Below are positions 1 to 64,000 of a stretch of 64,000 bases of DNA, piece after piece. Source of the stretch: Amoebophrya sp. A120 (taxonomy: Eukaryota > Protista > Dinoflagellata). Numbering within the stretch: the first letter of the stretch is position 1; each line of letters starts with the position of its first letter. The position numbers were made by a program, and so were the translations under genes. The notes below the pieces were generated by a model. It was not told where the DNA came from. It did not search any database and was given only the letters and a program-made list of their open reading frames with translations. The stretch is taken from the NCBI GenBank assembly GCA_905178155.1, contig CAJINV010000004.1:8702882-8766881 (forward strand). Reading direction: 5' to 3'.

Positions 1-47
1 TTAACTTTGATTTTATATTTAAGTTATCACTTTTATCAAGTTTTATA

Positions 48-4577: not shown

Positions 4578-4653
4578 GCCAGTCGTCCGCTTGGCCGGTG
4601 TTATACTCCGCCGCCGTTGGTCTTGTTTCGTACCCGGAATCGGCAGGAGTGGT

Positions 4654-5084
4654 TATACGGAACGTTAGAATCGCATCTCAAGTCGATAAAAACTTGATCA
4701 TTGACTTCCACCGAACACGCATGCTACTGCGAAAAACAAACAAGAATTCCCCGAGACGTCACATCATGATTTTTTGCGTTTTTTCTTCTTTTTCATCATC
4801 ACAATGTTGAGGTAAACGAGAGCATTCGGAGCGGTTCGATATTTCTTGTCGCCTACCGCGAGCTTCTTTCAGCGCGACAACCTCAACTACGAACCGGGAA
4901 ATTTTGTTTTTTCATTCAACGAAACTCGTTGCAGCAAGTCTGTCATGCACGAATGACAGGAAACGCACCTGAAAACGGAACGCATATACGAAAAGCTGCA
5001 TCTTTTTCAAAAAACCAAACAGTTGTACGAAATTGAAAAAAGAAAAACGTAAGACATATTTCCGAGCTTCGTCAGCGACAAGTT
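4654..5084. repeat. Direct terminal repeat (pseudo-LTR) of the PLE, copy 2
   Basis: Matches 48-478. Confidence 0.95.
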
Positions 5085-8476: not shown

Positions 8477-8760
8477 CTAGAAATAATTCTGTGATAGACA
8501 AAAACCAAAACGTTCGAAGGCTGCGCAATGCGTCGACTCTGATTTTTTGTTCAGGAGCTCAACCTGCAACCATTTCGAAGAGGTGTGGTGTTGAAATTCA
8601 AATTGCGTTCGCGATGGAAGGTTCTTGTAAAATGAAACGATCTCCATGGGTTCGTCATCGTCTCGGGGCACGAATTAAAATTGAATGATGTTTATGCGTG
8701 GCCTGGGCTTCTGCACCTTGTTCCAAAAATAGATACTTCAGGCACAATCGGTGTAGAAGT

Positions 8761-12758: not shown

Positions 12759-13929
12759 GGTCGCGCCCGGAGGGCGATATTGGTAACCAAATGCGTGCGC
12801 GAAAATCTAACCAGCGCGAAGGCCCACCAACCTTTTTCTAACATCGCAGCGGGGCATCCTTTCTAGCCCCCTGCATGACAAACTGGCCACCTGGCCGGGA
12901 AGGTATGTGGGTCATCGGGGGCTTCCGGATTCGCATTCAAAGCTTATCGCAGGACAACTACTGTCGCCCGCGTCGGCCCGCAGGCTCCTGCGATAAGCAT
13001 TGAAGGCGAAATCCGGTCTGCTATTTCGCAGCGGGCCATCCTTTCGATGCCCCTTGAAACAAAGTAGCCTTCTCTGAGGGCCACTATGCCGTCCCACATA
13101 ACGTTCTGCACGAGGGCACGCTGGCCAGGTAAAATGCATGAATTTCAAAAAGTGACGCACTTCTGTTCATTTCCGGCTGGCCTTTTGGGCAACCCAGATC
13201 GGGCTTTTCCAAGCGGGGGAAGGGTTCCAGTTTGCGACCTCAAAGAGGTCGAAAACCGTGCCCGTGTGACACACCTCCACAGGCTTGATAATTGGTTTTT
13301 CTTCGTCCAATCCTGGTGGTCCGGGCCTGCGGAAAATTTTGCGAACCCCTTTTGAGCGGCAATTTCCAAGCGGCTTTTGCTTTTTCAGAAAAAGTTGCCA
13401 TTTTCAATTTTCAAGCGGTTTCCGGGGGCTGGAGAAAATCGGTAAATTTTGTCGGCCGCTTATATGCTGCGAAAAATTGCATTTTTTCAACGCTTTTTTT
13501 CAATTTCCAAGCGGCTGGAGTTGCCCGGAGGTGGCGCGTTTTTCGCTACAAAACCCATCACACCGTCGGCCCTTGCCGAAAATGCAACTATCTTTTTTGA
13601 GATTCAGACCGGGCGGAGCTGCAAAATGCTCTTTTTTACCCTTTTCCCACTTGATAATTGCTGTTTTGGTTGCTTTCGGTTAAATTCCCAGAAATTCTGC
13701 CTGATCCGCTTTCTGAAGGCAAAACACACTTGGAAATGCCCGATTTTGCCAGTGATTGCATACTCCCGAATTCCTCCCATATGGCAACGGCAAAGCCTTC
13801 GCGCTGCGTTTGCGATGGATGAGCATCTCGCAAAGAGCGCTTTGCGCGCGGGCAAGCCCGCGCGCAAAGCGCTCTTGCGAGCGCTTGCGCACGCTTTGGT
13901 TACCAGATCACAATCCGAAGACGTAACCA
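12759..13929. mobile_element. Putative non-autonomous element with degenerate inverted ends (one per tandem unit)
   Basis: tggtaaccaaatgcgtgcgc (~12781) vs gcgcacgctttggttacca (~13887); internal tt(c)caagcgg repeats; perfect 21-bp-stem hairpin at 13833-13876. Confidence 0.45.
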
Positions 13930-14522
13930 AGTACAAGGAAAGAAACACGGCACATCGCTTCTCCATCGAGGTTGTAAGTGTGGAGGCCCCTGCGCTCCGT
14001 CCGGGCATGCGCCTGCTATCAATATTTCATGTTTCATTTCATCTACGCTTGTTACGACCTGAATATGGTTTTTTGATGACGGCTTTATTCGGACTCCTTC
14101 TACCGATGTATTTTGTCATCGGGCTTCTTGCCATCATACACGAGAGCATCAGTTCATCATACAACAGGGGGACATCAAATAAACCACATGCGCGAAAGAT
14201 TTTGCGAAATAAAAAGACACTTCATCTCTACCACCGGATGGCAAGTGGAAGTGGTTCTAGAAATAATTCTGTAGTAGACAAAAAACTTCGAAGCCTGCGG
14301 AGTGCGTCGACTCTGATTTTCTAACCTGCAACCATTTCGAAGAGGTGTGGTGTTGAAATTCAAATTGCGTTCGCGATGGAAGGTTCTTGTAAAATGAAAC
14401 GATCTCCATGGGTTCGTCATCGTCTCGGGGCACGAATTAAAATTGAATGATGTTTATGCGTGGCCTGGGCTTCTGCACCTTGTTCCAAAAATAGATACTT
14501 CAGGCACAATCGGTGTAGAAGT

Positions 14523-17197
14523 TCACTGTAGATACTCTTCCCACATGGCCAACAGCTCGTCGATCTTTTCCTTGGTAACGTGCTCCATGGTAAAGACGTG
14601 GATGTGCGCGTGCTTGTTCGCTTTGTCCTTGCTGGTCACCTGCACATACTCGGGGAAGGGCGCCAGATGGAACTTTCGGAACAGCTCCTTCGGCGGGAGG
14701 GGGCACATGACGCACATCACGCCCGGCGGGTGCCACGCGTCAAAGGGAAGCGCGTTTTTCCACAAATTGATTTTTCTTGTACAAGATGTATTTGAGTCAT
14801 TTTCGCCGTGGTGCCTCCTCTTGTTCAACTCCGAAACGAAATAATCCGCGGTTTCCAGGCACTTCCTCGTTCTTTCCACCATGTTTTCGAAGAAATTCTT
14901 TTCCATCAACTCCTTCAGCACGATGAAGGGCGCTAGCCCGTTCCGGGACCCCGTCAACGTGGTGTCCGGCGAGCCGATCTCAACTGCAAATATGTCTGGG
15001 TCTGGAAACTTGTGGTGCTGACAGTTGCAACACAGGATGGCCGCTTGTACGGTATAACAGCATGAGAAGCTTTCCTCGGCTTCTTCTGCATTCATTCGTA
15101 AATAAGTAGCACGACAAACTGTCTTCCAGCACGACAAAAAAAATCGCAAATCCTCTTCATGCATCACAGATCCAGCTGTCCTTCAAATTTCGCATCACAA
15201 ATCCAGACCCAGACATATTTGCAATGCATAGCCGATGTAAGCCACGTAGTGGTGCTCCCGCATCTCCTTCATGCGGCACTGCCGCAGCAAGTAGATCGAG
15301 CAGGGGAACGGCGTCCCCAAGCGCTTGTGGAAACTCGTGGCCTGGGAATCGACGAGCTCGTTGCTCACGTCGCAGTCTTTGTAATAAACCCGGCCTTCCA
15401 GAACGTCATGGCTCCTCTCAGTCTCGTCGCCCGTGGAACTTGCGTCGCGAGCTTGCCTCGCGCGCGCGCGTCGCGTCTGCGTCGCGTTGCGACGCGCGCA
15501 GGCGCGCGCCTGCGCAACGCGCCAGCGCGACGCAGCAGCAGCAGACAGCAAAGTGTCTACCTCTTGCCGCGGCCCAACATGCAGTTCGGCTTCTCGCGTA
15601 GACGTTTTTGCATTCAAGATCGGCGTGATAAATCCCCCGAGGGCTGCGTCCAGGTGGATGAAAACCCGGTTCCGCTTTAACTGCAAATCCTTGTAGAGCA
15701 CTTCCGCCAGTGCCGTTACGTCGTCGATCGCGCCCGTGCGGACGGACCCGCTGCACGCAACCAGGATAAAGGCCGGGGTGAAGGACGGGTGCTTTTTCTG
15801 CTGCGCAGCAGAAGTCGCAGAACAAACTCCAGTGTCACCGGCAACTCCAGGGTCAGAAGTCGTACAACAAACTCCATGATTCGGCAACCAACCACCAGCC
15901 GCGGAAGCCTTCTCCTGCACTTTTCGTATTACAATGAAAAATGCCCCCACCCCCGAACTTGAAAGCATTTGGATTGCAAACTTTTCCAAATGAAACATTC
16001 GCCCTCTTGCGTGTATCAGCATCACAGATTTCCGATCGTGAATGGCAAAAATTTGTATTGCAAACGATCCCAGCAAGAGCGGCGCCTGTCATGCAAGCGA
16101 TGCAAAACACGACTAGAATCTGCATCAGAAAGATTCACGCTCCTTTCATGCATGACAAAAAGTTTTCATTTGGAAACTTCGCATCACAAATTTTTGCAAT
16201 TTCAGGGGTGGGGGGCATTTTTCACTGTGATATTTCGCCGCAGGTCTTCCGGGTCCATCCGGCCCTCCGCGTCCACCTCGACCAGCAAAGCCTCCACGCC
16301 CACCAGGTCGGCGGCTTTGGTGACGCTGTAGTGCGAGTCCGCCGCGCAGAGGCAGAAGATACGCAGCGGGGGACGCGCTGAGGCAGAAGATACGATCGCT
16401 GAGAGATCGGAAGACTTAATAGTAGTTGTACTAGTTTTCATCTTTTCTTCTTCAACATCTTCTCCTTCCTGTTGCCACATTTGCTGCAGCCAGCGGCGCG
16501 CGTTGTAGATCGCAAAGATGTTGGACTCCGACGAGCCGTGGGTAATGTACCCCCAGAACCTTTCCGGGTCCACCCGGTACAGCATTTTACACAGCAAGTT
16601 GATGGCCTGCACCTCCTCGTCAAATGTTTGTACGTACGCGTTTTTGCCCGTGTACGGGTCCCCCAAGTTGTTGCAGCAGTTGCCCAACAGGGGCCAGTAC
16701 TTGGTTAAATCGTGCACGTCCATATTCATTTGGATGCCGAGGCAGTTTTTGCTCTCGGCAACGTTTTTTTCGTAAAACTTGGTTGCAGACGGGTCGGCGG
16801 CGGGAGGTGTTCGTGAGAGCCGGTCGCGCTGCTCATCGCCCGGCTGCTTGGTACTAGTATCCCCGACTACTTCGCGGGCCTGGTCGGCAGTGCCAGTAAA
16901 CAGGATAGCATTACCATTGCTGGTAGCGCAGCAACCTTTTGCCTCGTCCCCGTCGTTCATTTCATCGAGGTCGCAGGCAGCTTCTAAGGCACATTCCATG
17001 GGCGAGACGGTAGAGTCCGTCTTACGCAGCGTGAAGAAATTTCGACGCTTCAGCATGAATCCACTCGAGGACACCAATTTGCCCCCAGTGAATTTTCCTC
17101 CCTTCATCTTGTCGCCCTGCTCTCCGAGGGGCTTGGACGAAGGGGCGGACTCGTCGTCGTTTTTCCGATTAGTGATTTTTGTTTTTGTGTTTTTCAT
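14523..17197 (-). CDS. PLP-dependent decarboxylase, copy 2
   Basis: Same as copy 1 except F->I (TPFL->TPIL) from SNP at 15620. Confidence 0.88.
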
Positions 17198-20100
17198 GTT
17201 TTTCAAATTTTTATGCTTTTACTATTTTTATCTTGTTATGCTGAAGAGGAATCTGTAACGAAAAACAGGCACTGTAGAATGCGAAAATTTGTGATGCAAA
17301 AGCAACAACTTTTACTGCACGCAGAGGATATTAGTCGCGGCGCTCCTCGTTGGCGACTGGAACTGGGAGGGGCGCAGCTGTTCGTGGTGGTTGTTGCGGC
17401 GGCTCCTCGGCGGTGTGCTACTTAATTTCGAGATCGAAAAATTAGTAGTAAACCTAAAAAAATTGCAAAAGTAAATTAGCTCTACAGCGTGGGGACGCTT
17501 GTACTGGAATAAATTTTCAAGGTGTAAGCCGTTACGTTGGGCTCATAACTCTTGGAAGGAAAACGTGTGAACACCTTGACCCTCCAAGAGTAGAACGGTA
17601 CAACGACGGACGAAGTAGGAAACTAGTGGGATACCACTTGAGTCGGGGCACCACTTTGTATCCTGCGTACAGACAGTATTCACGATGGTAGCACGACATT
17701 AGCATGATGCTACGACTACTAGACACGATACTACCATGCTACGACAGACGATACTTCTTGTGTCATACCGATTATAGGCCTAGTGCTGGCGTGAACGATG
17801 TGAGTACGATACCGATGACGATTCGGGACACGACTAGAGCTACTACCGATGGAGGGTCGTTTTTGTGTCACTTTGTATCATTTCTTACAGGCAAAAGAAC
17901 AACGGACCGCACCCATGGTTTTACTTTAGTATCGTCTTATATGTGAATTGTACTAGGTGCTTGCTCTTACTAGCAATTTCTTTTTCGTGAATTGTATTAG
18001 ATCATCTGATTGCTCCAACAGAAATTCCTTTACATCAAGTGAGTCTTTCCCTACTGTAGGGTTGCGGAGTTCTTTTCATGCGAAGTAGTCTTTACGTTTT
18101 TCGGCAACTGTTAATAGCCGAGAACCCTTTGTAGACTCGACGCGTCCAAGAAAAAATCGGTGTTGTTGAATTGCAAAAAAAACCTATGGGCCGATGACTG
18201 TGTGCAGAGGATCTACGGGTCCCGACTTTCTCAAGCCAACCGACAGGCGCGCAGAATTCTTCGGCACGTAGCACCTTGCGCTTATTTTTCATTTTGGCAG
18301 TTTTCTTGTTGGTCCGGTGGTCTTTTCATTTTTGATCTTGATCCCTTCAGCAGGAAACACGTACTCCTTGTCCTGCCAGGCCTGCTTCAGATCTCTTGCG
18401 GGATGGTCTTTTTTCTCTACTAGAAGTAAAACAAATCGAGGAACGACGTTGACTAGGCAGTAGATGAGAAGGTGATCTTCGTTCAACATGCTTTATTTCA
18501 TAATACACGGATTATATTAAGGTCGCGCCCGGAGGGCGATATTGGTAACCAAATGCGTGCGCGAAAATCTAACCAGCGCGAAGGCCCACCAACCTTTTTC
18601 TAACATCGCAGCGGGGCATCCTTTCTAGCCCCCTGCATGACAAACTGGCCACCTGGCCGGGAAGGTATGTGGGTCATCGGGGGCTTCCGGATTCGCATTC
18701 AAAGCTTATCGCAGGACAACTACTGTCGCCCGCGTCGGCCCGCAGGCTCCTGCGATAAGCATTGAAGGCGAAATCCGGTCTGCTATTTCGCAGCGGGCCA
18801 TCCTTTCGATGCCCCTTGAAACAAAGTAGCCTTCTCTGAGGGCCACTATGCCGTCCCACATAACGTTCTGCACGAGGGCACGCTGGCCAGGTAAAATGCA
18901 TGAATTTCAAAAAGTGACGCACTTCTGTTCATTTCCGGCTGGCCTTTTGGGCAACCCAGATCGGGCTTTTCCAAGCGGGGGAAGGGTTCCAGTTTGCGAC
19001 CTCAAAGAGGTCGAAAACCGTGCCCGTGTGACACACCTCCACAGGCTTGATAATTGGTTTTTCTTCGTCCAATCCTGGTGGTCCGGGCCTGCGGAAAATT
19101 TTGCGAACCCCTTTTGAGCGGCAATTTCCAAGCGGCTTTTGCTTTTTCAGAAAAAGTTGCCATTTTCAATTTTCAAGCGGTTTCCGGGGGCTGGAGAAAA
19201 TCGGTAAATTTTGTCGGCCGCTTATATGCTGCGAAAAATTGCATTTTTTCAACGCTTTTTTTCAATTTCCAAGCGGCTGGAGTTGCCCGGAGGTGGCGCG
19301 TTTTTCGCTACAAAACCCATCACACCGTCGGCCCTTGCCGAAAATGCAACTATCTTTTTTGAGATTCAGACCGGGCGGAGCTGCAAAATGCTCTTTTTTA
19401 CCCTTTTCCCACTTGATAATTGCTGTTTTGGTTGCTTTCGGTTAAATTCCCAGAAATTCTGCCTGATCCGCTTTCTGAAGGCAAAACACACTTGGAAATG
19501 CCCGATTTTGCCAGTGATTGCATACTCCCGAATTCCTCCCATATGGCAACGGCAAAGCCTTCGCGCTGCGTTTGCGATGGATGAGCATCTCGCAAAGAGC
19601 GCTTTGCGCGCGGGCAAGCCCGCGCGCAAAGCGCTCTTGCGAGCGCTTGCGCACGCTTTGGTTACCAGATCACAATCCGAAGACGTAACCAAGTACAAGG
19701 AAAGAAACACGGCACATCGCTTCTCCATCGAGGTTGTAAGTGTGGAGGCCCCTGCGCTCCGTCCGGGCATGCGCCTGCTATCAATATTTCATGTTTCATT
19801 TCATCTACGCTTGTTACGACCTGAATATGGTTTTTTGATGACGGCTTTATTCGGACTCCTTCTACCGATGTATTTTGTCATCGGGCTTCTTGCCATCATA
19901 CACGAGAGCATCAGTTCATCATACAACAGGGGGACATCAAATAAACCACATGCGCGAAAGATTTTGCGAAATAAAAAGACACTTCATCTCTACCACCGGA
20001 TGGCAAGTGGAAGTGGTTCTAGAAATAATTCTGTAGTAGACAAAAAACTTCGAAGCCTGCGGAGTGCGTCGACTCTGATTTTCTAACCTGCAACCATTTC

Positions 20101-20284
20101 GAAGAGGTGTGGTGTTGAAATTCAAATTGCGTTCGCGATGGAAGGTTCTTGTAAAATGAAACGATCTCCATGGGTTCGTCATCGTCTCGGGGCACGAATT
20201 AAAATTGAATGATGTTTATGCGTGGCCTGGGCTTCTGCACCTTGTTCCAAAAATAGATACTTCAGGCACAATCGGTGTAGAAGT

Positions 20285-22959
20285 TCACTGTAGATACTCT
20301 TCCCACATGGCCAACAGCTCGTCGATCTTTTCCTTGGTAACGTGCTCCATGGTAAAGACGTGGATGTGCGCGTGCTTGTTCGCTTTGTCCTTGCTGGTCA
20401 CCTGCACATACTCGGGGAAGGGCGCCAGATGGAACTTTCGGAACAGCTCCTTCGGCGGGAGGGGGCACATGACGCACATCACGCCCGGCGGGTGCCACGC
20501 GTCAAAGGGAAGCGCGTTTTTCCACAAATTGATTTTTCTTGTACAAGATGTATTTGAGTCATTTTCGCCGTGGTGCCTCCTCTTGTTCAACTCCGAAACG
20601 AAATAATCCGCGGTTTCCAGGCACTTCCTCGTTCTTTCCACCATGTTTTCGAAGAAATTCTTTTCCATCAACTCCTTCAGCACGATGAAGGGCGCTAGCC
20701 CGTTCCGGGACCCCGTCAACGTGGTGTCCGGCGAGCCGATCTCAACTGCAAATATGTCTGGGTCTGGAAACTTGTGGTGCTGACAGTTGCAACACAGGAT
20801 GGCCGCTTGTACGGTATAACAGCATGAGAAGCTTTCCTCGGCTTCTTCTGCATTCATTCGTAAATAAGTAGCACGACAAACTGTCTTCCAGCACGACAAA
20901 AAAAATCGCAAATCCTCTTCATGCATCACAGATCCAGCTGTCCTTCAAATTTCGCATCACAAATCCAGACCCAGACATATTTGCAATGCATAGCCGATGT
21001 AAGCCACGTAGTGGTGCTCCCGCATCTCCTTCATGCGGCACTGCCGCAGCAAGTAGATCGAGCAGGGGAACGGCGTCCCCAAGCGCTTGTGGAAACTCGT
21101 GGCCTGGGAATCGACGAGCTCGTTGCTCACGTCGCAGTCTTTGTAATAAACCCGGCCTTCCAGAACGTCATGGCTCCTCTCAGTCTCGTCGCCCGTGGAA
21201 CTTGCGTCGCGAGCTTGCCTCGCGCGCGCGCGTCGCGTCTGCGTCGCGTTGCGACGCGCGCAGGCGCGCGCCTGCGCAACGCGCCAGCGCGACGCAGCAG
21301 CAGCAGACAGCAAAGTGTCTACCTCTTGCCGCGGCCCAACATGCAGTTCGGCTTCTCGCGTAGACGTTTTTGCATTCAAGAACGGCGTGATAAATCCCCC
21401 GAGGGCTGCGTCCAGGTGGATGAAAACCCGGTTCCGCTTTAACTGCAAATCCTTGTAGAGCACTTCCGCCAGTGCCGTTACGTCGTCGATCGCGCCCGTG
21501 CGGACGGACCCGCTGCACGCAACCAGGATAAAGGCCGGGGTGAAGGACGGGTGCTTTTTCTGCTGCGCAGCAGAAGTCGCAGAACAAACTCCAGTGTCAC
21601 CGGCAACTCCAGGGTCAGAAGTCGTACAACAAACTCCATGATTCGGCAACCAACCACCAGCCGCGGAAGCCTTCTCCTGCACTTTTCGTATTACAATGAA
21701 AAATGCCCCCACCCCCGAACTTGAAAGCATTTGGATTGCAAACTTTTCCAAATGAAACATTCGCCCTCTTGCGTGTATCAGCATCACAGATTTCCGATCG
21801 TGAATGGCAAAAATTTGTATTGCAAACGATCCCAGCAAGAGCGGCGCCTGTCATGCAAGCGATGCAAAACACGACTAGAATCTGCATCAGAAAGATTCAC
21901 GCTCCTTTCATGCATGACAAAAAGTTTTCATTTGGAAACTTCGCATCACAAATTTTTGCAATTTCAGGGGTGGGGGGCATTTTTCACTGTGATATTTCGC
22001 CGCAGGTCTTCCGGGTCCATCCGGCCCTCCGCGTCCACCTCGACCAGCAAAGCCTCCACGCCCACCAGGTCGGCGGCTTTGGTGACGCTGTAGTGCGAGT
22101 CCGCCGCGCAGAGGCAGAAGATACGCAGCGGGGGACGCGCTGAGGCAGAAGATACGATCGCTGAGAGATCGGAAGACTTAATAGTAGTTGTACTAGTTTT
22201 CATCTTTTCTTCTTCAACATCTTCTCCTTCCTGTTGCCACATTTGCTGCAGCCAGCGGCGCGCGTTGTAGATCGCAAAGATGTTGGACTCCGACGAGCCG
22301 TGGGTAATGTACCCCCAGAACCTTTCCGGGTCCACCCGGTACAGCATTTTACACAGCAAGTTGATGGCCTGCACCTCCTCGTCAAATGTTTGTACGTACG
22401 CGTTTTTGCCCGTGTACGGGTCCCCCAAGTTGTTGCAGCAGTTGCCCAACAGGGGCCAGTACTTGGTTAAATCGTGCACGTCCATATTCATTTGGATGCC
22501 GAGGCAGTTTTTGCTCTCGGCAACGTTTTTTTCGTAAAACTTGGTTGCAGACGGGTCGGCGGCGGGAGGTGTTCGTGAGAGCCGGTCGCGCTGCTCATCG
22601 CCCGGCTGCTTGGTACTAGTATCCCCGACTACTTCGCGGGCCTGGTCGGCAGTGCCAGTAAACAGGATAGCATTACCATTGCTGGTAGCGCAGCAACCTT
22701 TTGCCTCGTCCCCGTCGTTCATTTCATCGAGGTCGCAGGCAGCTTCTAAGGCACATTCCATGGGCGAGACGGTAGAGTCCGTCTTACGCAGCGTGAAGAA
22801 ATTTCGACGCTTCAGCATGAATCCACTCGAGGACACCAATTTGCCCCCAGTGAATTTTCCTCCCTTCATCTTGTCGCCCTGCTCTCCGAGGGGCTTGGAC
22901 GAAGGGGCGGACTCGTCGTCGTTTTTCCGATTAGTGATTTTTGTTTTTGTGTTTTTCAT
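20285..22959 (-). CDS. PLP-dependent decarboxylase, copy 3
   Basis: Translation identical to copy 1. Confidence 0.88.
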
Positions 22960-25900
22960 GTTTTTCAAATTTTTATGCTTTTACTATTTTTATCTTGTTA
23001 TGCTGAAGAGGAATCTGTAACGAAAAACAGGCACTGTAGAATGCGAAAATTTGTGATGCAAAAGCAACAACTTTTACTGCACGCAGAGGATATTAGTCGC
23101 GGCGCTCCTCGTTGGCGACTGGAACTGGGAGGGGCGCAGCTGTTCGTGGTGGTTGTTGCGGCGGCTCCTCGGCGGTGTGCTACTTAATTTCGAGATCGAA
23201 AAATTAGTAGTAAACCTAAAAAAATTGCAAAAGTAAATTAGCTCTACAGCGTGGGGACGCTTGTACTGGAATAAATTTTCAAGGTGTAAGCCGTTACGTT
23301 GGGCTCATAACTCTTGGAAGGAAAACGTGTGAACACCTTGACCCTCCAAGAGTAGAACGGTACAACGACGGACGAAGTAGGAAACTAGTGGGATACCACT
23401 TGAGTCGGGGCACCACTTTGTATCCTGCGTACAGACAGTATTCACGATGGTAGCACGACACTAGCATGATGCTACGACTACTAGACACGATACTACCATG
23501 CTACGACAGACGATACTTCTTGTGTCATACCGAATATAGGCCTAGTGCTGGCGTGAACGATGTGAGTACGATACCGATGACGATTCGGGACACGACTAGA
23601 GCTACTACCGATGGAGGGACGTTTTTGTGTCACTTTGTATCATTTCTTACAGGCAAAAGAACAACGGACCGCACCCATGGTTTTACTTTAGTATCGTCTT
23701 ATATGTGAATTGTACTAGGTGCTTGCTCTTACTAGCAATTTCTTTTTCGTGAATTGTATTAGATCATCTGATTGCTCCAACAGAAATTCCTTTACATCAA
23801 GTGAGTCTTTCCCTACTGTAGGGTTGCGGAGTTCTTTTCATGCGAAGTAGTCTTTACGTTTTTCGGCAACTGTTAATAGCCGAGAACCCTTTGTAGACTC
23901 GACGCGTCCAAGAAAAAAACGGTGTTGTTGAATTGCAAAAAAAACCTATGGGCCGATGACTGTGTGCAGAGGATCTACGGGTCCCGACTTTCTCAAGCCA
24001 ACCGACAGGCGCGCAGAATTCTTCGGCACGTAGCACCTTGCGCTTATTTTTCATTTTGGCAGTTTTCTTGTTGGTCCGGTGGTCTTTTCATTTTTGATCT
24101 TGATCCCTTCAGCAGGAAACACGTACTCCTTGTCCTGCCAGGCCTGCTTCAGATCTCTTGCGGGATGGTCTTTTTTCTCTACTAGAAGTAAAACAAATCG
24201 AGGAACGACGTTGACTAGGCAGTAGATGAGAAGGTGATCTTCGTTCAACATGCTTTATTTCATAATACACGGATTATATTAAGGTCGCGCCCGGAGGGCG
24301 ATATTGGTAACCAAATGCGTGCGCGAAAATCTAACCAGCGCGAAGGCCCACCAACCTTTTTCTAACATCGCAGCGGGGCATCCTTTCTAGCCCCCTGCAT
24401 GACAAACTGGCCACCTGGCCGGGAAGGTATGTGGGTCATCGGGGGCTTCCGGATTCGCATTCAAAGCTTATCGCAGGACAACTACTGTCGCCCGCGTCGG
24501 CCCGCAGGCTCCTGCGATAAGCATTGAAGGCGAAATCCGGTCTGCTATTTCGCAGCGGGCCATCCTTTCGATGCCCCTTGAAACAAAGTAGCCTTCTCTG
24601 AGGGCCACTATGCCGTCCCACATAACGTTCTGCACGAGGGCACGCTGGCCAGGTAAAATGCATGAATTTCAAAAAGTGACGCACTTCTGTTCATTTCCGG
24701 CTGGCCTTTTGGGCAACCCAGATCGGGCTTTTCCAAGCGGGGGAAGGGTTCCAGTTTGCGACCTCAAAGAGGTCGAAAACCGTGCCCGTGTGACACACCT
24801 CCACAGGCTTGATAATTGGTTTTTCTTCGTCCAATCCTGGTGGTCCGGGCCTGCGGAAAATTTTGCGAACCCCTTTTGAGCGGCAATTTCCAAGCGGCTT
24901 TTGCTTTTTCAGAAAAAGTTGCCATTTTCAATTTTCAAGCGGTTTCCGGGGGCTGGAGAAAATCGGTAAATTTTGTCGGCCGCTTATATGCTGCGAAAAA
25001 TTGCATTTTTTCAACGCTTTTTTTCAATTTCCAAGCGGCTGGAGTTGCCCGGAGGTGGCGCGTTTTTCGCTACAAAACCCATCACACCGTCGGCCCTTGC
25101 CGAAAATGCAACTATCTTTTTTGAGATTCAGACCGGGCGGAGCTGCAAAATGCTCTTTTTTACCCTTTTCCCACTTGATAATTGCTGTTTTGGTTGCTTT
25201 CGGTTAAATTCCCAGAAATTCTGCCTGATCCGCTTTCTGAAGGCAAAACACACTTGGAAATGCCCGATTTTGCCAGTGATTGCATACTCCCGAATTCCTC
25301 CCATATGGCAACGGCAAAGCCTTCGCGCTGCGTTTGCGATGGATGAGCATCTCGCAAAGAGCGCTTTGCGCGCGGGCAAGCCCGCGCGCAAAGCGCTCTT
25401 GCGAGCGCTTGCGCACGCTTTGGTTACCAGATCACAATCCGAAGACGTAACCAAGTACAAGGAAAGAAACACGGCACATCGCTTCTCCATCGAGGTTGTA
25501 AGTGTGGAGGCCCCTGCGCTCCGTCCGGGCATGCGCCTGCTATCAATATTTCATGTTTCATTTCATCTACGCTTGTTACGACCTGAATATGGTTTTTTGA
25601 TGACGGCTTTATTCGGACTCCTTCTACCGATGTATTTTGTCATCGGGCTTCTTGCCATCATACACGAGAGCATCAGTTCATCATACAACAGGGGGACATC
25701 AAATAAACCACATGCGCGAAAGATTTTGCGAAATAAAAAGACACTTCATCTCTACCACCGGATGGCAAGTGGAAGTGGTTCTAGAAATAATTCTGTAGTA
25801 GACAAAAAACTTCGAAGCCTGCGGAGTGCGTCGACTCTGATTTTCTAACCTGCAACCATTTCGAAGAGGTGTGGTGTTGAAATTCAAATTGCGTTCGCGA

Positions 25901-26036
25901 TGGAAGGTTCTTGTAAAATGAAACGATCTTTCGTCTTGGGGCACGAATTAAAACTAAATGATGTTTATGCGTGGCCTTGGCTGCTGCACCTTGTTCCAAG
26001 AATACTAGATACTTCAGACACAATCGGTGTAGAAGT

Positions 26037-29000
26037 TCACTGTAGACATTCCTCCCACATGGCCAACAGCTCGTCGATCTTTTCCTTTATCAAAGTGAAA
26101 AAAGCCCCCACCCCCTATCGGAAACGGAAGATGCGCGAATTTGTGATGCTGTATTTGAGTACACAAATCAACTTGTATTGCTGGAAAGCCAAGAGACGAA
26201 GCTGCGGCCTAAATTGCAGGCAATCTGTCATGCTGTTTCCCACTTCCAGTTGCCTCGTGTCATCCTGGAGCTGCAAGGCTTTCCCACGCTAGACAGCACT
26301 ACAGTCCGCATCTTTTGCCTTCGAGCATCACAGAGCTCATTTGTGACCACAAATCTGCATCACAGATTTCCGTTTTAATATGGGGAGGGGGCATTTTTCA
26401 TTGTCATATCCTTGGTAACGTGTTCCATGGTGAAGACGTGGATGTTATCAAATGCAAATATGTCTGGGTCTGAAAGGATGCGAACTTGTGATGCATCTTG
26501 CGGACCGTACAACAATCTGTGTTGCGTGACTTGCAAAAGGTGCCCATTTCTGTCCATGCTGAGAGGGTATTTCTCTTGCAGAACAGGCATCACCGAGGGG
26601 CTGCAGATCCTGTGATGCTAGCCCCTGCATTCCAGACTTGGTGGAGCTTGGATAAACTGCATCACAAATCTCCGAATCTTCCAGACCCAGACAATTTTGC
26701 ATTTGATATATGTGGCCGTGCTTCTCCGCCTTGTCCTTGCTGGTCACCTGCACATACTCGGGGAAGGGCGCCAGATGGAACTTTTGGAACAGCTCCTTCG
26801 GCGGCACGGGGCACATGACGCACATCACTATCCCACAGAGAAAAGCTGGCAGGGCATAATTTTTGTATAATGCAAAAATAAACACACAGAAAAATCTGTC
26901 ACGGGCTGCCTCATAGCATGCTGGTTAGGATACGCAATACAGATTTTTTTGTGTATTTATTTTTGCATTACAAATGTGGCCCGCCAGTTTTTTTCTGTGT
27001 GATAATCACTCCCGGCGGGTGCCACGCATCGAAGGGAAGCGCGTTTTTCCACAAGTTTATTATGCATTGCAAATATGTTGTCTGGGTCTGGAAACCTGTG
27101 ATGCTGCGTGACGTATCATGAGGAGGTCACAAGTGCTGGCTCAGCATGACAAGTTTCTCAGCCTTTGCGTGTTGCCTATTCTGCATGACAAACTGCGTTT
27201 CTGCATGACAGAAAAGCGGGGCTCTTGGGTAGCCTGCATGACAGATTTAAGAGTCATGCCAGACAAGCATGACAAACATGCATTCTTCCAGACCCAGACA
27301 TTTTTGCATTTGATATTGATTTTTCTTGTACAAGAAGATGAATTTGAGTCAACATCGCGACCACACAAGAACTTCTCGCCGTGGTGCCTCCTCTTGTTCA
27401 ACTCCGTAACAAAATAATCCGCGGTTTCCAGGCAGGTCCTCTATGCAATGCAAAAGCATCGCACTCGTGTTGCAATCATGCATTACAAATCTTTTTCTGA
27501 GGACAAATCCGCATTACAAAAATTTCCTTTCTCATGCTGAGGAAATTTGTAATGCATTTGTACGAGTACGATACTTTTGCAGTGCATATCCTCGTTCTTT
27601 CCACCATGTTTTCGAAGAAATTCTTTTCCATCAACTCCTTCAGCACGATGAAGGGCGCTAGCCCGTTCCGGGACCCCGTCAAGGTGGTGTCCGGCGACCC
27701 GATGTAATCGACGTAGTGGTGCTCCCGCATGGCCTTCATGCGGCACTGCCGCAGCAAGTAGATCGAGCAGGGGAACGGAGTATCAAATGCAAAAGCGCCT
27801 TGGTCTGGAAGATTGCAACTTGTCATGCTGTTTTTGGACTCTAAAAAAATTTGTATTGCATGACCAGCAAGAGGGGTGCAATTTGTGCTACACGGACAGG
27901 GCATTTCTCATGCGGAAGGTGCATCAGGAAGCCCTCTAAAAGCCTGCGGTGCTAGGGCATGCATTACAGGCGTCATGGGTCATGCAAAATATGCATGACA
28001 AACCTGGCAATCTTCCAGACCCAGACATTCTTGCAGTTCATACGGCGTCCCCATACGCTTGTGGAAACTGGTGGTCTGGGAATCGACGAGCTCGTTGCTC
28101 ACGTCGCAGTCTTTGTAGTAAGGCCGGCCTTCCAGAAGGTCGTGGCCCGTTGAACAAGTGTCTACCTCTTGCCGCGACCCAAGATGCAGTTGCAGTTCAG
28201 CTTCTCGTGTAGACGTTTTGGCATTCAAGAACGGCGTGATAAATCCCCCGAGGGCTGCGTCCAGGTGGATGAAAACCCGGCTCCGCTTTAACTGCAAATC
28301 CTTGTACAGCACTTCCGCCAGTGCCGTCACGTCGTCGATCGCGCCCGTGCGGACGGACCCGCTGCACGCAACCAGGATAAAGGCCGGGGTGAAAGAGAAC
28401 TCGTGCTCCTCCTGCTGCGCAGCAGAAGTCGTACAACAACTTCCCGTGTCGCCGGCAACATCGTGATGATTCGGTAACCAACCACCAGCCGCGGAAACCT
28501 TCTCCTGCACTTTTCGCCGCAGGTCTTCCGGGTCCATCCGGCCCTCCGCGTCCACCTCGATTAACAAAGCCTCCACGCCCACCAGGTCGGCGGCTTTGGT
28601 GACGCTGTAGTGCGAGTCCGCCGCGCAGAGGCAGAAGATACGAAGTTGGGGACGGCAATAGGAAGAGTTGTTGATAGTTGTACTAGTTTTCATCTCTTTT
28701 TCAACATCTTCTGCTTCCTGTTGCCACATCTGCTGCAGCCAGCGGCGCGCGTTGTAGATCGCAAAGATGTTGGACTCGGACGAGCCGTGGGCTATGTAGC
28801 CCCAGAACCTTTCCGGGTCATCAACCCGGTACAGCATTTTACACAGCAAATTGATCGCCTGCGCCTCCTCGTCAAAGGTTTGGACGTACGCGTTTTTGCC
28901 CGTGTACGGGTCCCCCAAATTGTTGCAGCAGTTGCCCAACAGGGGCCAGTACTTCGTTAAATGGTGCACGTTGAGATTCATTTGGATCCCGAGGCAGTTT

Positions 29001-29167
29001 TTGCTCTCGGCAACGTTTTTTTCGTAAAACTTGGCTGCGGACGGGTCGGCGGCGGGAGGTGTTGGTGACGAGAGCTGGTCTCGCTGCTCATTCTTGTCAG
29101 GCCACTCGGTTGTACTATCCTCGACTACCTCGAGGGGGGCAACGAAAGAACGACGGACCGCACCCAT
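26037..29167 (-). CDS. PLP-dependent decarboxylase, diverged paralog 4 with six introner introns
   Basis: Same motifs; ATG at 29167, TGA at 26037-26039; collinear with copy 1 once six TAT...ATA inserts are removed. Confidence 0.85.
26088..26408 (-). mobile_element. Introner family II
   Basis: tatcaaagtgaaaaagccccc...gggggcatttttcattgtcata; direct repeat tcctt. Confidence 0.88.
26446..26708 (-). mobile_element. Introner family I
   Basis: tatcaaatgcaaatatgtctgggtctg...cagacccagacaattttgcatttgata; repeats gatgt/tatgt. Confidence 0.88.
26829..27004 (-). mobile_element. Introner family III (nearly full-length hairpin)
   Basis: tatcccacagagaaaagctggc...gccagtttttttctgtgtgata plus inner IR; direct repeat atcac. 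Confidence 0.88.
27061..27315 (-). mobile_element. Introner family I
   Basis: tatgcattgcaaa...gtctgggtctggaa / ttccagacccagac...tgcatttgata; repeats tttat/ttgat. Confidence 0.88.
27442..27588 (-). mobile_element. Introner family IV
   Basis: tatgcaatgcaaaagcatcgcactcgt / acgagtacgatacttttgcagtgcata; direct repeat tcctc. Confidence 0.88.
27781..28042 (-). mobile_element. Introner family I
   Basis: tatcaaatgcaaaa...ggtctggaa / ttccagacc...tgcagttcata; repeats cggag/cggcg. Confidence 0.88.
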
Positions 29168-30141
29168 GGTTTTACTTTAGTAATCGTCTTCTATGTGATG
29201 TACTAGGCGCTTGCTCTAACTAGCAATTTTTATTCGTGAATTGTACCACTAGATATGATTGCTTGAACTCCAACAGAAATTCCTTTAGATCAAGTGAGTC
29301 TTTCTCTACTTTAGCGCTGCGGAGTTCTTTTCATGCGAAGTAGTCTTTACGTTTTTCCGAAACTGTTAACATTAGCCGAGATCCTTTTGCAGACTCGATG
29401 CGTCCAGCAAAAAAACACTGTTGTTGAATTGAAAAGAAAACCTATGGGCCGATGACTGTGTGCAGAAGATTCATCACGGGTCCCGACTTATTTCTCAAGC
29501 CAACCGACTACAGGCGCGCAGAATTCTTCGGCATGGAGCACCTTGCGCTGATTTTTCAATTTCGCAGTTTTCTTGTTGATCCGGTGGTCTTTCCATTTTC
29601 GATATTGATCCGAATTTCTACGAGGCGCGGTTTGCGGTAATTCGTTAGAAAGTCCATGCAGATTACAACCGATCAGCTAGATGTGATCAAGACGCGAAGA
29701 ACCGACAACATTTGAAAGCGTCAGTGTACAGTTCTTTTCTATCGATTGGATACCACAACAACGTCTTGTCTTCATTGGGGCTTGCTTACAACAACAACAA
29801 CAAAAATGAAAGCGCGGAACGCAGCTGGAAGCGCCGCACGCAGTTGCGCCATGTTGTTCTTTTCTGGGTTGATAAAGTCGCCTGCGTCGCCGCGAAGGAA
29901 ATGATAAAATAAAATGTCCTTTAACACTCTGACTCAATAAATGAAGATGAACTGTCGTGGCTGTGCAGCGTCGCTAATTTGCATGCTGTTCGCGGAAACT
30001 CGAGACGACAGCGCGACTTTGGTAGGTGTCGAAATATCTTTTGGGGGATCGAAACTTTTTTTTTGCACGAAGCAGCTCTTTCAAGATCACAGACCCCTGC
30101 TTACCGCTCCGGTTGTCGCCTTGGAGGCGCCGGTTTTCTCT

Positions 30142-57236: not shown

Positions 57237-60200
57237 ATGGGCGGGTCGCTGGCTTCCTACGCCTGCCCCAAGCGGTCCGACCGGGGGCCGACCACGGGGT
57301 ATATCGATGGCTGCTTTGACATCATGCACAGCGGCCACTACAACGCGATTCGGCAAGCGAAGCAGCTCTGCGACAGGTTGGTCGTCGGGGTGCACTCCGA
57401 TCCCGAGATCGCGAAGAATAAGGGGCCGCCGGTAATGAATCAGCAGGAACGGGTATGATCCACGGTGTGAAAATATGCTCATAGCACCGCCTTCGTGCAG
57501 TAAGAAGTATCGAGTACTACTTGTTCGGTTCTTGCCAAAGGATAAGATTTTCGATTTTGTATCGCACATTTTTTTCTACCGCTGAAAAAAGAATACATGT
57601 TAAAAATTATCCAACCTTCGCTATCAAGACTCGGCGGTGCGTTGGAGGCTTTCTTCGCATAGGATAAGTCTACGGCCTTCTGGAGCATATCAAGTGGATA
57701 GACAAAATTGTTTACGACGTGCCGTATTCTCCTGGCATCGAGCTCCTGGACCGCGCGGGGGCGGACTTCTGCGTTCACGGTAAAATTTGTTTCTGTGAAG
57801 ATGTTCGTTTTCTTTAAGAAAACGAACACGAGAAGAAGAAGTTGCACTAATAGTGCAACTTCTTGTGAAGGTGCAGAAACTTGCAACTTGGATTTCGGAC
57901 GAGGTTGTCAAGCATGAAACTGTTTCAAGAATAACGAAAACGCAGGGGACGATATGCCTGTCAATTCGGAAGGGGTCGGTGCGTACGATGCGATCCGCGA
58001 CGCCGGGATATCCAGAGCTACTCGACAACTTCCTCCCTTTATTTGCCATGCCGGAGCAGCTGTAAAACCGTAGCTGGTGATGCGAGAACTCTTGCATGGA
58101 AAATTCATGTTCTGAAATGTGCAACAACCAAGGGCCGCATCAAGCTGTCTTCAGCACGATAAATGCGGAAGTGAGGGTAGTTTTGTTCAACGTGATACCA
58201 GAGACTGAAAATAGTGAAGCGAACCGAGGGCGTGTCCACCACGGATTTCATTGGGAGGCTGCTTTCGCTTTCCAAGTAAGAAATTTATTTTGAAAGCAGT
58301 TTGTCTTTGTCATGCTGAACAGATGTAGCACATGTTCTACTTTTACCGCGGCCCATGATGCGTGGGTAATATGTTTCCAAGCTAGGATGTTAGGTGGAGA
58401 TGAATTTTTGTTGCTCGTCAAGTTATTGTCATCGGTATTTGCAATACCAATTTTTTTCTCACCAGGTCGCACCACGAGCGCAGTAGCCCGATCGCACCGC
58501 AGACCCCGCCAGAGAGGAGAACGCTGTCGCAGCAGGGCGTGATATCCTGATGGGAAATCCTCGCACAAGTTGTGATGCGCCAGAACATGAACGTGTAATG
58601 CGGCAGAACGAACATGCGAGACATTATTACACTTCCCCTTTAGCCTGCAACTACTGTACGCTTTTTCAAAGTCCCTTCCGACGCATTACAACGAGATGGT
58701 GAAGATTTTGCCCTTGCATACTTGAAGCTGCTTGCCTCGACAAGAAGAATATCGGAGTTTTCCCGGCCTCACAAAAGCCCCTCGCCGACGGACACTGTGG
58801 TAAGTAAGTATGTTAAAGGTTTTATTTGTCATTCGGTAAGACCATGCCTCTAGAAGTACTTTGTCATGTCAAATCATACACGGTAGAAACACAAGAATAC
58901 TCCGAGGTCTACTGTGACGGCGCGTTCGACATGTTCCACCTCGGCCATGCCACGACGCTGAAAAAGGCGAAGGAACTCGGCAGCTTCCTGATAGTCGGGG
59001 TTTACGACGACGACACAGTGAATGAGATCAAGGGCGCAAACTACCCCATCGCGACTTTGCAGGAGCGGGTGCTCTGCGTGTGCAGCTGCAAGTGGGTCGA
59101 CGAGGTACTTGTACTTCTAGAGAATTTTGCTTCAGCAGGAGCAGCTTCGCTACTTTGCGTTTGCGAGGACGTGTAAGGTGCAATAAAGATAAACCCCTTG
59201 TAGTTCTTCATCTTTTGAAAGAACCTGTTATCCACGATGAAACATCTTCAACACCAACGCGCAAAAAAACATTACAAAAAGGTTATTATCGGCGCTCCCC
59301 TCGCCGTATGAACTGCAGAAGTATCGTACTCGTATAAATGCATTACAAATTTTCTCAGCATGAGAAAATCTGTAATGCGGATTTACCTTGAGAAAAAGAT
59401 TTGTAATGCATGAGTGCAATACGAGTGCGATTCTACACAGGATACGCCGTGACCAGTGACATGATCCACACGCTGAACATCAATCTGGTGGTCAACGGAA
59501 GCCACATATCAGATGCAAAAATGTCTGGGTCTGGAAGAGTGCAACGTGTGATGCTGCATTTGGATGCTGGAAAAAATCTGTATTGCATGAGCAGCAAGAG
59601 GAGTCAACTATGGCTACGCGGACAGGGCATTTGTCATGCGGGATGCGCATCAAGAAGCGCTCAAAAACTCTGTGATGCTAGGGGATGCACCACAGACATC
59701 ATGGATCATGGAAATGGTGCATGACAACCCAGACATATTTGCATTTGATACCACACGAGCACGCACTACTTCCGCGAGGCCGGGTTCGGTACCGACGTTC
59801 TGTCACTCGAAAACACGGACATGGACCCCTACCGGGTACCGAAGCGGCTGGGGCTCATGCGCATATCAAATGCAAATATGTCTGGGTCTGGAAACTTGTA
59901 AAAATGCTGCGTTGGCAATAGTGAGCGCTCGGTAATGCACAGCCAAGCATGAGAAATTTCTTTGCGTTGCGTTTTTCGCATGAATTTGCATGACAGGCAA
60001 AAGGGTCTCTTCTTGGACACGCATCACAAACTTTTTGGTCATGCCAGACAAGCATGACAGGTCTCGCAATCTTCCAGACCCAGACATTTTTGCATTTGAT
60101 AGCGCACCGTGAAGAGCGACTACCCGGAGCTGAACACCAGCGTGATTGCCAAACGCGTAGCGGAGAACCGGCTGGCCTACATCAACCGCAATAACGATCG

Positions 60201-60524
60201 GGAAAAGCGGGAAATCGACTACTATAAGGACAAGCAAAAGTCTATGAACTGCAAATATGTCTGGGTCTGGAAACTTGTGATGCTACTTTCTGAAGGCTCG
60301 GCGCACTGCGTTACGCAGCCACGCATGACAAGTTTCTGAGCTCCTATGTGTTTCGCTTCTCGGGTGACAAACTGCGTTTTTGCATGACAGGGAAGGAGCT
60401 GCTTTGCCGCTCATGCATGACAGATTCAAGAGTCATGTGAGACAAGCATGACAAACTTGCATTCTTCCAGACCCAGACATATTTGCACTTGATAAAGTCC
60501 AAGGAGTTTCGGGCGGAGAATTGA
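57237..60524 (+). CDS. PCYT2: Ethanolamine-phosphate cytidylyltransferase (two CTP-transferase domains), 12 exons
   Basis: DGCFDIMHSGH...VGVHSD...KGPPVM, DFCVHGDD, KRTEGVSTTD, DGAFDMFHLGH...KWVDEVIIGAP, DPY; GT-AG introns 57780-57945, 58276-58465, 58800-58906, 59105-59281; seven non-canonical introns. Confidence 0.9.
58543..58720 (+). mobile_element. Degenerate introner intron
   Basis: tatc...cata flanked by cgtga/cttga; removal gives GVKLLASTRRISEF. Confidence 0.7.
59307..59444 (+). mobile_element. Introner family IV
   Basis: Similar to the reverse complement of 27442-27588; direct repeat cgccg. Confidence 0.85.
59507..59750 (+). mobile_element. Introner family I
   Basis: Family I IRs; direct repeat ccaca; interior similar to 27781-28042. 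Confidence 0.9.
59864..60101 (+). mobile_element. Introner family I
   Basis: Family I IRs; direct repeat gcgca. Confidence 0.9.
60243..60494 (+). mobile_element. Introner family I
   Basis: Family I IRs; direct repeat aagtc; interior similar to 27061-27315. Confidence 0.9.
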
Positions 60525-61162: not shown

Positions 61163-64000
61163 ATGGCGAGGCTGCGGCGGGGGTGGTGGGCACGACGATT
61201 CGGCGTAGGAGCTGCAGTAGGGGCCACAGCTTTGGTCCTTGTGGGAGATCCTGCAAACCAACTTGTCTCCGCCGCTGCTCCCTCCGTTCTTCTGCCGCCA
61301 GAGTTCCGCGCGTGGCACAACAACCGGGGAACGACGGGCGAAGAGAGTGCAGGAACGCAGGCAACACGGCCTGATGAACATCAGCGTGGAGTTGATAATG
61401 AAGACCCAAGCAGGGCTAGAAGGAAGGAACGCAAACGAAGCAGCGCGAAAATTCCTTCTAATCCAGGTCGGTCATCAGCAACTGAAGTAGACCATGAGGA
61501 ACAGAAAAATCTCCGCTCGGGGACCACGACGCCACCGCACGGTGCAGCTCCAGAAGCAGGTGGGAAAATAAATAAAGCCGCACCAGCACGTGAAGAACAA
61601 GGGAGCAATCATCTCTCGTCGGCGAAGAGGGATAAACAACTCGTTCGCACGAGAAACAAGCCCCCTCAACGGCCGAATAGGACGGTCAGCACGACCCGTC
61701 CTGCTGCGACCTCCGTGCAACCGAAATCTTCAAAAATCGCAGATGCGCATAAAAAATCGCCGCAGAACATCAACGGGTCGAAATCAAGAAGGATTTCCGC
61801 TGCCAAAAACCTCCCCCTCGCCCGCGCCTTGCTGAAGAGCGGTAGAAGTGACGAGAACCAGGGAGATGCTGGTGTTGTCAGGCATGAGGAGAGTTCTCTC
61901 GTCCGCGCGATGCCAGCGGCACGGGCGGACCGGAAGCAGAAGAATCGGTTGGAGCCGAAATCGCTCATGCAGACGGGAACCGGCAGCGACGTCGAGTGGA
62001 CGGTTATGGAACCGAAAATTAATTATGGGTTTTGTTGTAGTGGTGCTACGCGCCGTAAGTGCTTCGGGGCGAAAGATCCCCGCGCGCTAAGTACTTCGCT
62101 CCTTAAGTGCCTCGCCCCTTAGGTGCTTCGCACTTAAAGTGCTTCGCCCATTAAGTGCCTCGCTCCTTAAGTGTTTCGCGCCTTAAGTGCTTCGCTCCTT
62201 AAGTGCTTCAGTGTTTCGCGCCTTAAGTGCTTCGCGCCTTAAGTGCTTCGCGCCTTAAGTGCTTCGCTCCTTAAGTGCTTCGCCCCTTAAGTGCTTCGCC
62301 CCTTAAGTGCTTCGCCCCTTAAGTGCTTCGCCCCTTAAGTGCTTCGGCGATGAAGACCCTCCCCCCTAAAGTAATTCGCTCCTGCTTAAGTCTTTCGCTT
62401 AGGTGCTTACGTAGTGCTTCCTGCAAGTAGCGTTTCGCGTAGGTGGTTCCTCCCTCAAGTGGTGCGCCGCTTCTGTACTGCTTCGCTCAAGTAGTGCCCT
62501 GTTTGAGTACTTGCTCGCCCAGCTGGTGCTCCGCTTGCGTACTGCTTCACTTGAGGGCTTCGCTTACGTGCTTCGCCTGGGTGCTTCGCTTAAGTGCTTC
62601 GCCTGAGTAAGTGCTTCGCTTAAGTGCTTTGCTCAATCGCGCCCCTGAGAAGCGTCGCCCGACAAGTGGTTCGTCGCTTAAGTAGTGCGTCGCTTAAATA
62701 GTGCGTCGCTTAAATAGTGCGTCGCTTAGCTGGTGCGTCGATCAAGTAGTGCCCCGCTTAATTAGCGCGTCGCTTAAGTAGTGCCCCTCTTAATTAGCGC
62801 GTCGCTTAAGTAGTGCGTCGCTTAAGTAGTGCCCCGCTTAAGTAGTGCGTCGCTTAAGTAGTGCGTCGCTTAAGTAGTGCGTCGCTTAAGTAATGCGTCG
62901 CTTAAGTAGTGCGAGTGCCACCTCGCCTCAGTAGTACTGCCTCGCCTAGCTGCGCGTCGCAGATGTGGCGCCCCGCGTAAATGGTTCGCTTCAGTGCCTT
63001 TCTCAAGTGCTCTGTCTATGGCGTTCGAAATTCGGTGCTTCGCTTTTTTGCCGAAGACGACAACAACCTTAATTTTCCCTTCCACAACCGTCACCAACCT
63101 CGCGTCTCGTGGTCGCATCCAGCGGTTGAATAGCGACATCTCGCAGGAGAGGCAATCCGCAGAAGAAAGCGACCGGGAGTGCCGCGCGGAGCAGCAGAGC
63201 ATGCAGTCGGAGGTCATGGAAATGCAGAACAGCCTTGGCGAGATATCATTTCTAAAAACGTCCCCACTACATAGTTGTCATGCAAATCTGCATGCTCAAA
63301 ATGTTTCTCATGCGGAGCCCCATGACAAGCATTTTCTAGGCGCGTTTTGGAATTTGTAGTGCTCCAATCAGCATAATAGGCTAGATCTGTGATGCTGCTG
63401 AACAGGCTAAACAGGATTACACTACGAGGCCAAGCTTGTCATGCGCAACACCCAAAGCTGACAGATTTGTCTAGCAGATTTTCCATCTTGGCTATGGGGT
63501 AGGTACGTTTTTGCTCAGGATGCGAGATCATGATCCAGTTGGCCGACGAAGAGGCGAAGCAGGGAAAAGCCCAGGGCAACAAGATAAGTAAGTGGCTTAC
63601 CACAGTGAGGTTAAGGTGCGGGAGGACTGGCTACTTTGTGATCATGCACTTACTTTTACACTTCTACTTCCACCCTGAAGAACCTATTGGCTTTGAAGAG
63701 TTCTTTGTGTGATGTTGCTCGCTCTTGCACAGATAGATTCAAGCGTATAATATCTGTCCCCACCTAAATCCTTTTTCTTTCCACACGATACGATGACGCG
63801 CACCAGAACAACGCGGACCCGTCGAGTACGAGTGAAGCGTCCGAGAAATGCAACATCGCCGGCGTGCGGGAAAAGCTGCGGCTCGCGGAGAGGCAGTTGG
63901 ACGAGAATCGGAAAGAGGAGAAGCGGCTCGAGGCGGTTTGCAGTGCGGAAAAGCAACACGCCGACGATCAGACGGCGCTGCTGGAGAAGAGTTCCGGGTC
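61163..64000 (+). CDS. Hypothetical protein (N-terminal hydrophobic segment, low-complexity linker, coiled coils); 3'-partial, multi-exon
   Basis: Exon to ~62004 joins in frame to 63092-63243 (WTV-TNLASRGRIQRL) and 63528-~63587 (GEIMIQLADEE); further coiled-coil exon from ~63790. Confidence 0.6.
62005..63086 (+). mobile_element. Introner-type intron expanded by internal satellite
   Basis: tatggaaccgaaaattaa / ttaattttcccttccaca; repeats acggt/accgt. Confidence 0.7.
62085..62915. repeat. 16-bp minisatellites (cttaagtgcttcgcnc then cgcttaagtagtgcgt)
   Basis: Visible tandem units at 62085-62346 and 62675-62912 with a degenerate transition. Confidence 0.92.
63244..63522 (+). mobile_element. Degenerate introner intron
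   Basis: tatcatttctaaaaacgt...acgtttttgctcaggatg; direct repeat cgaga; removal restores frame. Confidence 0.75.

Follow-up and report, generated by a model that had tools for sequence, protein, structure and literature searches.

The question raised by this locus is where its introns begin and end, when each insert is bordered by a short direct repeat that blurs the splice junction. The window analysed, a 64,000-nt stretch of the genome of Amoebophrya sp. A120, contains a gene for a PLP-dependent decarboxylase (copy A), the product of which is of group II and histidine-decarboxylase-like. The gene adjoins three near-identical 5762-bp tandem paralogs. Alignment of copy A to one of these paralogs revealed six inserts (A1-A6) that were absent from the paralog, each consisting of a TAT...ATA element that ends in terminal inverted repeats and stands between two copies of a 5-mer. 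When the element plus 5 nt was taken out at A2-A6, the frame was open from the exon after A1 through the stop codon, in agreement with the paralog. The features of the gene are as follows, with the intron ends as predicted in the N-TAT...ATA-NNNN register:

26030..29176, minus strand: PLP-dependent decarboxylase gene, copy A, with six introner elements (Pfam PF00282, E=1.9e-14)
27777..28043, minus strand: intron A1 (GT..CC), element 28042-27781, repeats cgccg/ctccg
27438..27589, minus strand: intron A2 (AT..GG), element 27588-27442, perfect repeat gagga
27057..27316, minus strand: intron A3 (AT..AA), element 27315-27061, repeats atcaa/ataaa
26825..27005, minus strand: intron A4 (TT..GA), element 27004-26829, perfect repeat gtgat
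26442..26709, minus strand: intron A5 (AT..AT), element 26708-26446, repeats acata/acatc, long terminal stem predicted
26084..26409, minus strand: intron A6 (AT..GG), element 26408-26088, perfect repeat aagga, lying beyond the stretch covered by the original prediction
20285..22980, minus strand: paralog B, one of the three tandem copies, with its own elements 21994-21689 and 20992-20740 and without A1-A6

The three tandem copies occupied 8561-25846, and neighbouring copies differed from each other by 5 bases; the triplication either happened very recently or is an artefact of the assembly. No exon cover of 25940-29300 was found in four RNA-contig runs, which was uninformative on expression either way.

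The inserts belong to the introners: they are TAT...ATA transposons that have inverted-repeat ends and a 5-bp target-site duplication. Introner elements of A120 were described by Farhat et al. 2021, with an inverted repeat that opens with TAT, followed by seven looser bases and AAA, and a median length of about 260 nt (PMC7789003), and they have been assigned TE classes (PMC12130899). The end profile of the present elements, TAT + 7 nt + AAA as an inverted repeat, fitted these introners. Border direct repeats of the introner type (3-5 nt) were present with a length of 5 nt, and empty sites were seen in the paralog. An exact 5-mer flanked 183 of 344 TIR pairs, a set that still includes overlapping loci; exact repeats of 4 nt flanked 1 pair, and those of 3 nt flanked 7.

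For a larger sample, metagenome contigs were scanned for the TIR, which gave 130 loci (L001-L130, 393 kb) of a related strain. Pairing of element ends without use of the repeats yielded 354 unique elements, the window included, of which 243 had perfect repeats and 68, 18 and 25 had one, two and more mismatches, respectively. There were 315 locus elements with two mismatches or fewer, and 228 of them were oriented by a codon model. Neighbouring elements agreed in orientation in 103/103 cases, and among 11 window elements the model scored 10 above its threshold on the strand expected and the eleventh below it. Family copies were 66-90% identical in the related-strain loci, with many more in RNA runs, and family markers were found in both orientations (13/11, 5/7 and 4/6); no family match was found for three decayed introns of the window, and no TIR match in viral contigs. 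The 5-mer target showed no base preference in the 228 oriented elements. In L001-L130, bases 2-4 upstream of the duplication were G-rich while the 5-mer itself was unbiased, and insertion phase was uneven (98/74/56, p=0.003). Two raw-read runs, X8 and X9, matched element sequence only (16 and 1 reads). The reads of run X8, from another sample, carried the same TIR (60068-60101) with different flanks and no exons, so that a further strain shares the element family.

Other elements of the window were also observed. A 21-kb element at 33647-54646 had CG...CG termini, direct terminal repeats of 1008 bp (98% identical) and a target duplication (gtcaa) of 5 bp, the same length as in the introners. 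It contained intron-free ORFs of 1207, 593, 2987, 687 and 449 aa, the 2987-aa ORF matching a UPF1-like helicase (AAA_11/12) and, weakly, a dual-specificity phosphatase; the 21-kb element resembles an LTR retroelement of unusual size. At 957-4652 on the minus strand, an intron-free 1231-aa ORF lay between 431-bp direct repeats (48-478 and 4654-5084). No Pfam match was found for this ORF; judged by eye, it carries what we take to be a GIY-YIG-like N-terminal motif and RT-like motifs, and it is possibly a Penelope-like element.

The original prediction had placed the junction in copy A by reading the paralog as the intron-less ancestral state. The alignment confirmed that three mismatched 5-nt repeats flank the inserts, and where the mismatch fell at position 2 or 3, the paralog matched the upstream copy, and where it fell at position 5, the downstream one, as claimed. 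The paralog was not intron-less, having two elements of its own, and its alleles did not prove a register, as four of eight random patterns fit some single register. The ancestral allele would not mark the exonic copy, because the paralog represents the target as it was prior to insertion, and either copy, exonic or intronic, can take a synonymous change.

The register was instead approached through RNA, in a cytidylyltransferase (PCYT2-like) gene of the same window, the transcript of which came from contig runs X1 and X4, two samples of one study:

57237..60523, plus strand: cytidylyltransferase (PCYT2-like) gene, 11 introns in RNA contigs (7 TAT...ATA, 4 GT-AG)
57453..57670, plus strand: intron G-TAT...ATA-AGTC (GT..TC) with a unique junction, joint 57452>57671, 0 ambiguous letters, in X1 and X4
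58008..58201, plus strand: intron with the junction after base 3, 4 or 5 in RNA contigs, repeats cggga/ccaga, AT..AG after base 4
58542..58724, plus strand: intron with the junction after base 2-5 in RNA contigs, repeats cgtga/cttga, AT..TG after base 4
59306..60498, plus strand: four spliced introner introns with perfect repeats that fit any register (elements 59307-59444, 59507-59750, 59864-60101 and 60243-60494)

The spliced transcript had 11 joints and a full open frame, and the element plus 5 nt was removed precisely in the RNA contigs. The four GT-AG introns of this gene did not have the TAT...ATA geometry. All seven TAT...ATA introns fitted N-TAT...ATA-NNNN, and no other register fitted all seven; one junction was unique, two bounded the register from below, and four were uninformative owing to their perfect repeats. 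The intron with the unique junction, 57453-57670, was a decayed element with the 5-mers acggg/agtct, and its 5' end was weak beyond TATG (PWM -15.5).

Two further elements were found downstream of this gene:

62004..63090, plus strand: TAT...ACA element of 1.08 kb (element 62005-63086) with a 16-nt minisatellite inside, repeats acggt/accgt, synonymous
63243..63526, plus strand: TAT...ATG element (start 63244) with the perfect repeat cgaga, predicted to read AT..AG in the N-TAT register

Excising the 62005-63086 element restored the frame. As the original prediction stated, the N-TAT register gives AT...AG ends at 58008-58201 and at 63243-63526.

An independent comparison was made between the related-strain locus L062, a single gene, and its A120 ortholog P0001 (85% identical). 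The register was supported at three of the four informative introns, at two of them uniquely, and opposed at one. In an old intron of the form G-TAT...ATA-CAAG, the ortholog's Leu was obtained only with the junction after base 4. In intron Y (G-TAT...ATA-AAAT), the ortholog's Gln was likewise obtained only after base 4, and a junction at base 3 or earlier created stop codons; reassignment of the stop codon was rejected as an explanation, the aligned L062 exons being stop-free and having many Gln. In the third intron, the ortholog's Asp appeared only after base 3 or 4. The opposing site, L062:1298, requires a junction at or before base 3 to give the ortholog's Lys, or else a Lys-to-Arg change, and one discordant site in four would not be surprising at 85% identity. 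A paralog within locus L068 (42% identical), the sole addition from the paralog search among the loci, weakly favoured base 4 or later. Homolog searches for polarised sites returned only an unspliced near-self product for L124 and nothing for L049, the search for L061 gave a self fragment and a repeat-type match only, and the PDB alignment of L013 ended short of the junction. Four of 41 non-synonymous mismatches could be polarised.

These data also bear on a register fixed one base earlier (NN-TAT...ATA-NNN). Such a register would explain the Lys at L062:1298, fits six of the seven RNA junctions and gives GA..AG ends at A2 and A6, but the unique RNA junction excludes it, as do the two old introns of L062. 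It also leaves no T at +2, unlike Table S4 of Farhat et al., where nine of the nine predominant non-canonical sites of A120 have T at this position (PMC7789003). We consider it very improbable. A T at +2 is what the N-TAT register predicts, although aligner bias may contribute to the published pattern. The junction of the original prediction thus stood on the RNA contigs and the L062 ortholog, while its argument from paralog alleles failed. The N-TAT...ATA-NNNN register is probably general, so that mRNA keeps bases 1-4 of the upstream repeat and base 5 of the downstream repeat, and the other copies are intronic and free to mutate.

The mismatches between repeat copies were examined with regard to a junction that slips within the repeat, with both copies held synonymous, as the original prediction had proposed. 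All three mismatches of copy A (cgccg/ctccg, atcaa/ataaa and acata/acatc) were synonymous, and four of the five single mismatches of the window were, as claimed, the fifth being cgtga/cttga (Val/Leu); this count favours slippage, but it was no more than expected by chance (p=0.13). In the related-strain elements, the counts over repeat positions 1-5 were flat (12, 17, 15, 17 and 18), and 38 of 79 mismatches were synonymous (48%), where a fixed junction predicts 44.7% (p=0.31); under relaxed exon constraint, with 30% of replacements accepted (omega 0.3), the share was marginally high (p=0.049), which would favour slippage. The remaining 41 of 79 were non-synonymous and were spread over all five positions. 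Mismatches were twice as frequent at third codon positions as at the other two (41/400 vs 38/740). This excess, together with the 41 non-synonymous mismatches, fits one exonic and one free copy, and slippage is not needed. Slippage could also account for L062:1298, which is at odds with base 4, rare isoforms could be dropped by contigs, and the sites have been called variable in print (PMC7789003). Against it, one joint per intron was found among the joints listed in each of the two runs, and stop codons would arise at L062 intron Y. Overall, a slipping junction appears improbable, and a single register is preferred.

In the N-TAT...ATA-NNNN register, only 6 of 228 oriented elements had GT...AG termini. 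No preference for AG at the acceptor was found among the 228 (15 downstream vs 17 upstream). The claim that N is A or G in most inserts agreed with 13 of the 17 window elements, a proportion within chance (p=0.07), but did not extend to the larger set, where 132/228 were purines vs 56.4% expected. A G at N, by which the introns were said to mimic a GTAT donor, occurred in 74/228 of these young elements vs 30.7% expected, and a preference for either purine or G was rejected. Intron phases in this register were 98/56/74, phase 0 being the highest, which supports it weakly. Among the five old introns with outside evidence (57453, 58008 and 58542 in the window; 1168-968 and 539-334 of L062 on the minus strand), N was G, A, A, G and G, and two ended in AG. 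These purine starts and AG ends hint at a slow drift towards canonical ends, five introns being too few for a test; an ab initio scan for further decayed introns found seven, too few to test drift to GT-AG. No Rfam match was found within the 64,000-nt window.

The two ends of the element were compared in 236 oriented elements from two scans (238 less two pairs without an intact end). At the 5' end the first T was never changed, whereas its mirror base at the 3' end was changed 5 times. The third base was changed 6 times at the 5' end and its 3' mirror, the first A of ATA, not once. This post hoc asymmetry (Fisher p=0.002) is built on 11 changes, and some of these may be family variants (TAC x3, TAA x2); four of the five last-base changes were A>G, also compatible with U.G wobble. 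The first T and the first A of ATA were kept in 236/236 and in all 17 window elements. In the N-TAT...ATA-NNNN register these invariant bases are U+2 and A-7, and the asymmetry suggests them as a donor base and a candidate branch A at -7. A U at branch position -2 was not favoured.

A mechanism can be proposed on this basis. A relaxed U2-type spliceosome would likely read U+2 and the adenosine at -7 in place of GT-AG. Donor U+2 would come from the first T of TAT, and the branch adenosine from the first A of ATA; the 3' cut would be measured six bases past this putative branch adenosine, with +1, -2 and -1 free. In spliceosome structures, U+2 contacts U6 and G+1 pairs with G-1. It would thus be coherent that U+2 is kept while +1 and -1 are freed together; an invariant A so close to the acceptor hints that branching occurs there and that the 3' cut is placed by distance. 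If the symmetric end of the transposon holds both signals, the element could insert at any 5-mer, in whichever orientation, and be spliced out seamlessly. That the elements are excised at one fixed register without need of GT-AG is, on balance, the best overall explanation. Whether the symmetric ends themselves supply the donor and branch signals in either orientation, with a measured 3' cut and +1, -2 and -1 free, is close to evenly poised.

The same fixed register might instead be set by a terminal hairpin acting as a ruler, excision being spliceosome-independent or structure-guided, as proposed for nonconventional introns of Euglena. The young element A5 folded strongly (z=-9.0), whereas the RNA-exact intron 57453-57670 had no significant fold (z=-0.5). 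The 5' end of an element fitted its own 3' end better than that of another (10.0 vs 8.3 of 13), but transposition alone predicts the same. A U.G pair was kept in the four A>G last-base changes, but changes at TIR position 3 occurred on the 5' side only, breaking the pairing, and G.U showed no excess over A.C in TIR positions 4-16 (100 vs 137); selection for RNA wobble in the TIR was rejected on these counts. The hairpin would also accord with the missing U1 and with the fixed spacers N3...N5-6 of Euglena (PMC12501133). Taken together, a hairpin ruler seems unlikely, and reading of U+2 and A-7 by the spliceosome is favoured over it.

Several known systems resemble parts of this arrangement. Introns of Giardia and Trichomonas have a fixed short distance from branch to acceptor, and retain GT/AG ends together with a long, fused branch motif. 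They are alike in that the 3' splice site is fixed from the branch A; here, A-7 is a candidate for that role. The introners of Micromonas and Aureococcus are likewise TIR transposons that can be spliced seamlessly by virtue of their target-site duplication, and in Fritillaria borealis non-GT/AG ends are handled by a U2-type spliceosome; those systems keep a GT/GC donor, take AG from the duplication, or have AG-AN ends at TAC targets, whereas the 5-mer here was unbiased (PMC11282704, PMC13326754). In Euglena, junctions of nonconventional introns are also blurred by direct repeats, non-slidable introns reveal fixed spacers, and a MITE-like origin has been suggested. The Euglena form is N3-CAG...CTG-N5-6 with tested pairing (PMC12501133), whereas the form proposed here is N1-TAT...ATA-N4, and no RNA-level pairing signal was found; TAT and ATA occupy +2..4 and -7..-5, instead of CAG at +4..6 and CTG at -8..-6. 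The published A120 introners share 5-bp direct repeats and non-canonical borders mixed with GT-AG introns. They are described with splice positions that vary relative to the hairpin, and the legend of Fig. 3 calls the splice sites variable and the border unknown (PMC7789003), whereas the present proposal is of a single register with two invariant bases that depend on orientation. The elements are thus already known; no statement of the N1/N4 register or of the end asymmetry was found in the literature searched, with figures and most subscription papers outside its scope, and the register rule was not found in print there.

With the splice position left variable or unknown in print, any mechanism is blocked and gene models are affected. 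The register, if true, would settle this question. More than 60% of the introns of the A120 genome are non-canonical, and its gene models would be touched. A fixed N1/N4 register with two invariant bases predicts the retained allele, the lariat branch site and the changed U6/U2 bases. U1 snRNA was not detected in A120 (PMC7789003). We tentatively propose that the A120 lineage splices tens of thousands of introns without a terminal-dinucleotide code, by means of a donor N-U-A, a branch A at -7 and a measured 3' cut, with no U1 detected. The register would show how far a spliceosome tolerates the loss of GT-AG, and how a transposon can spread without target-site preference.
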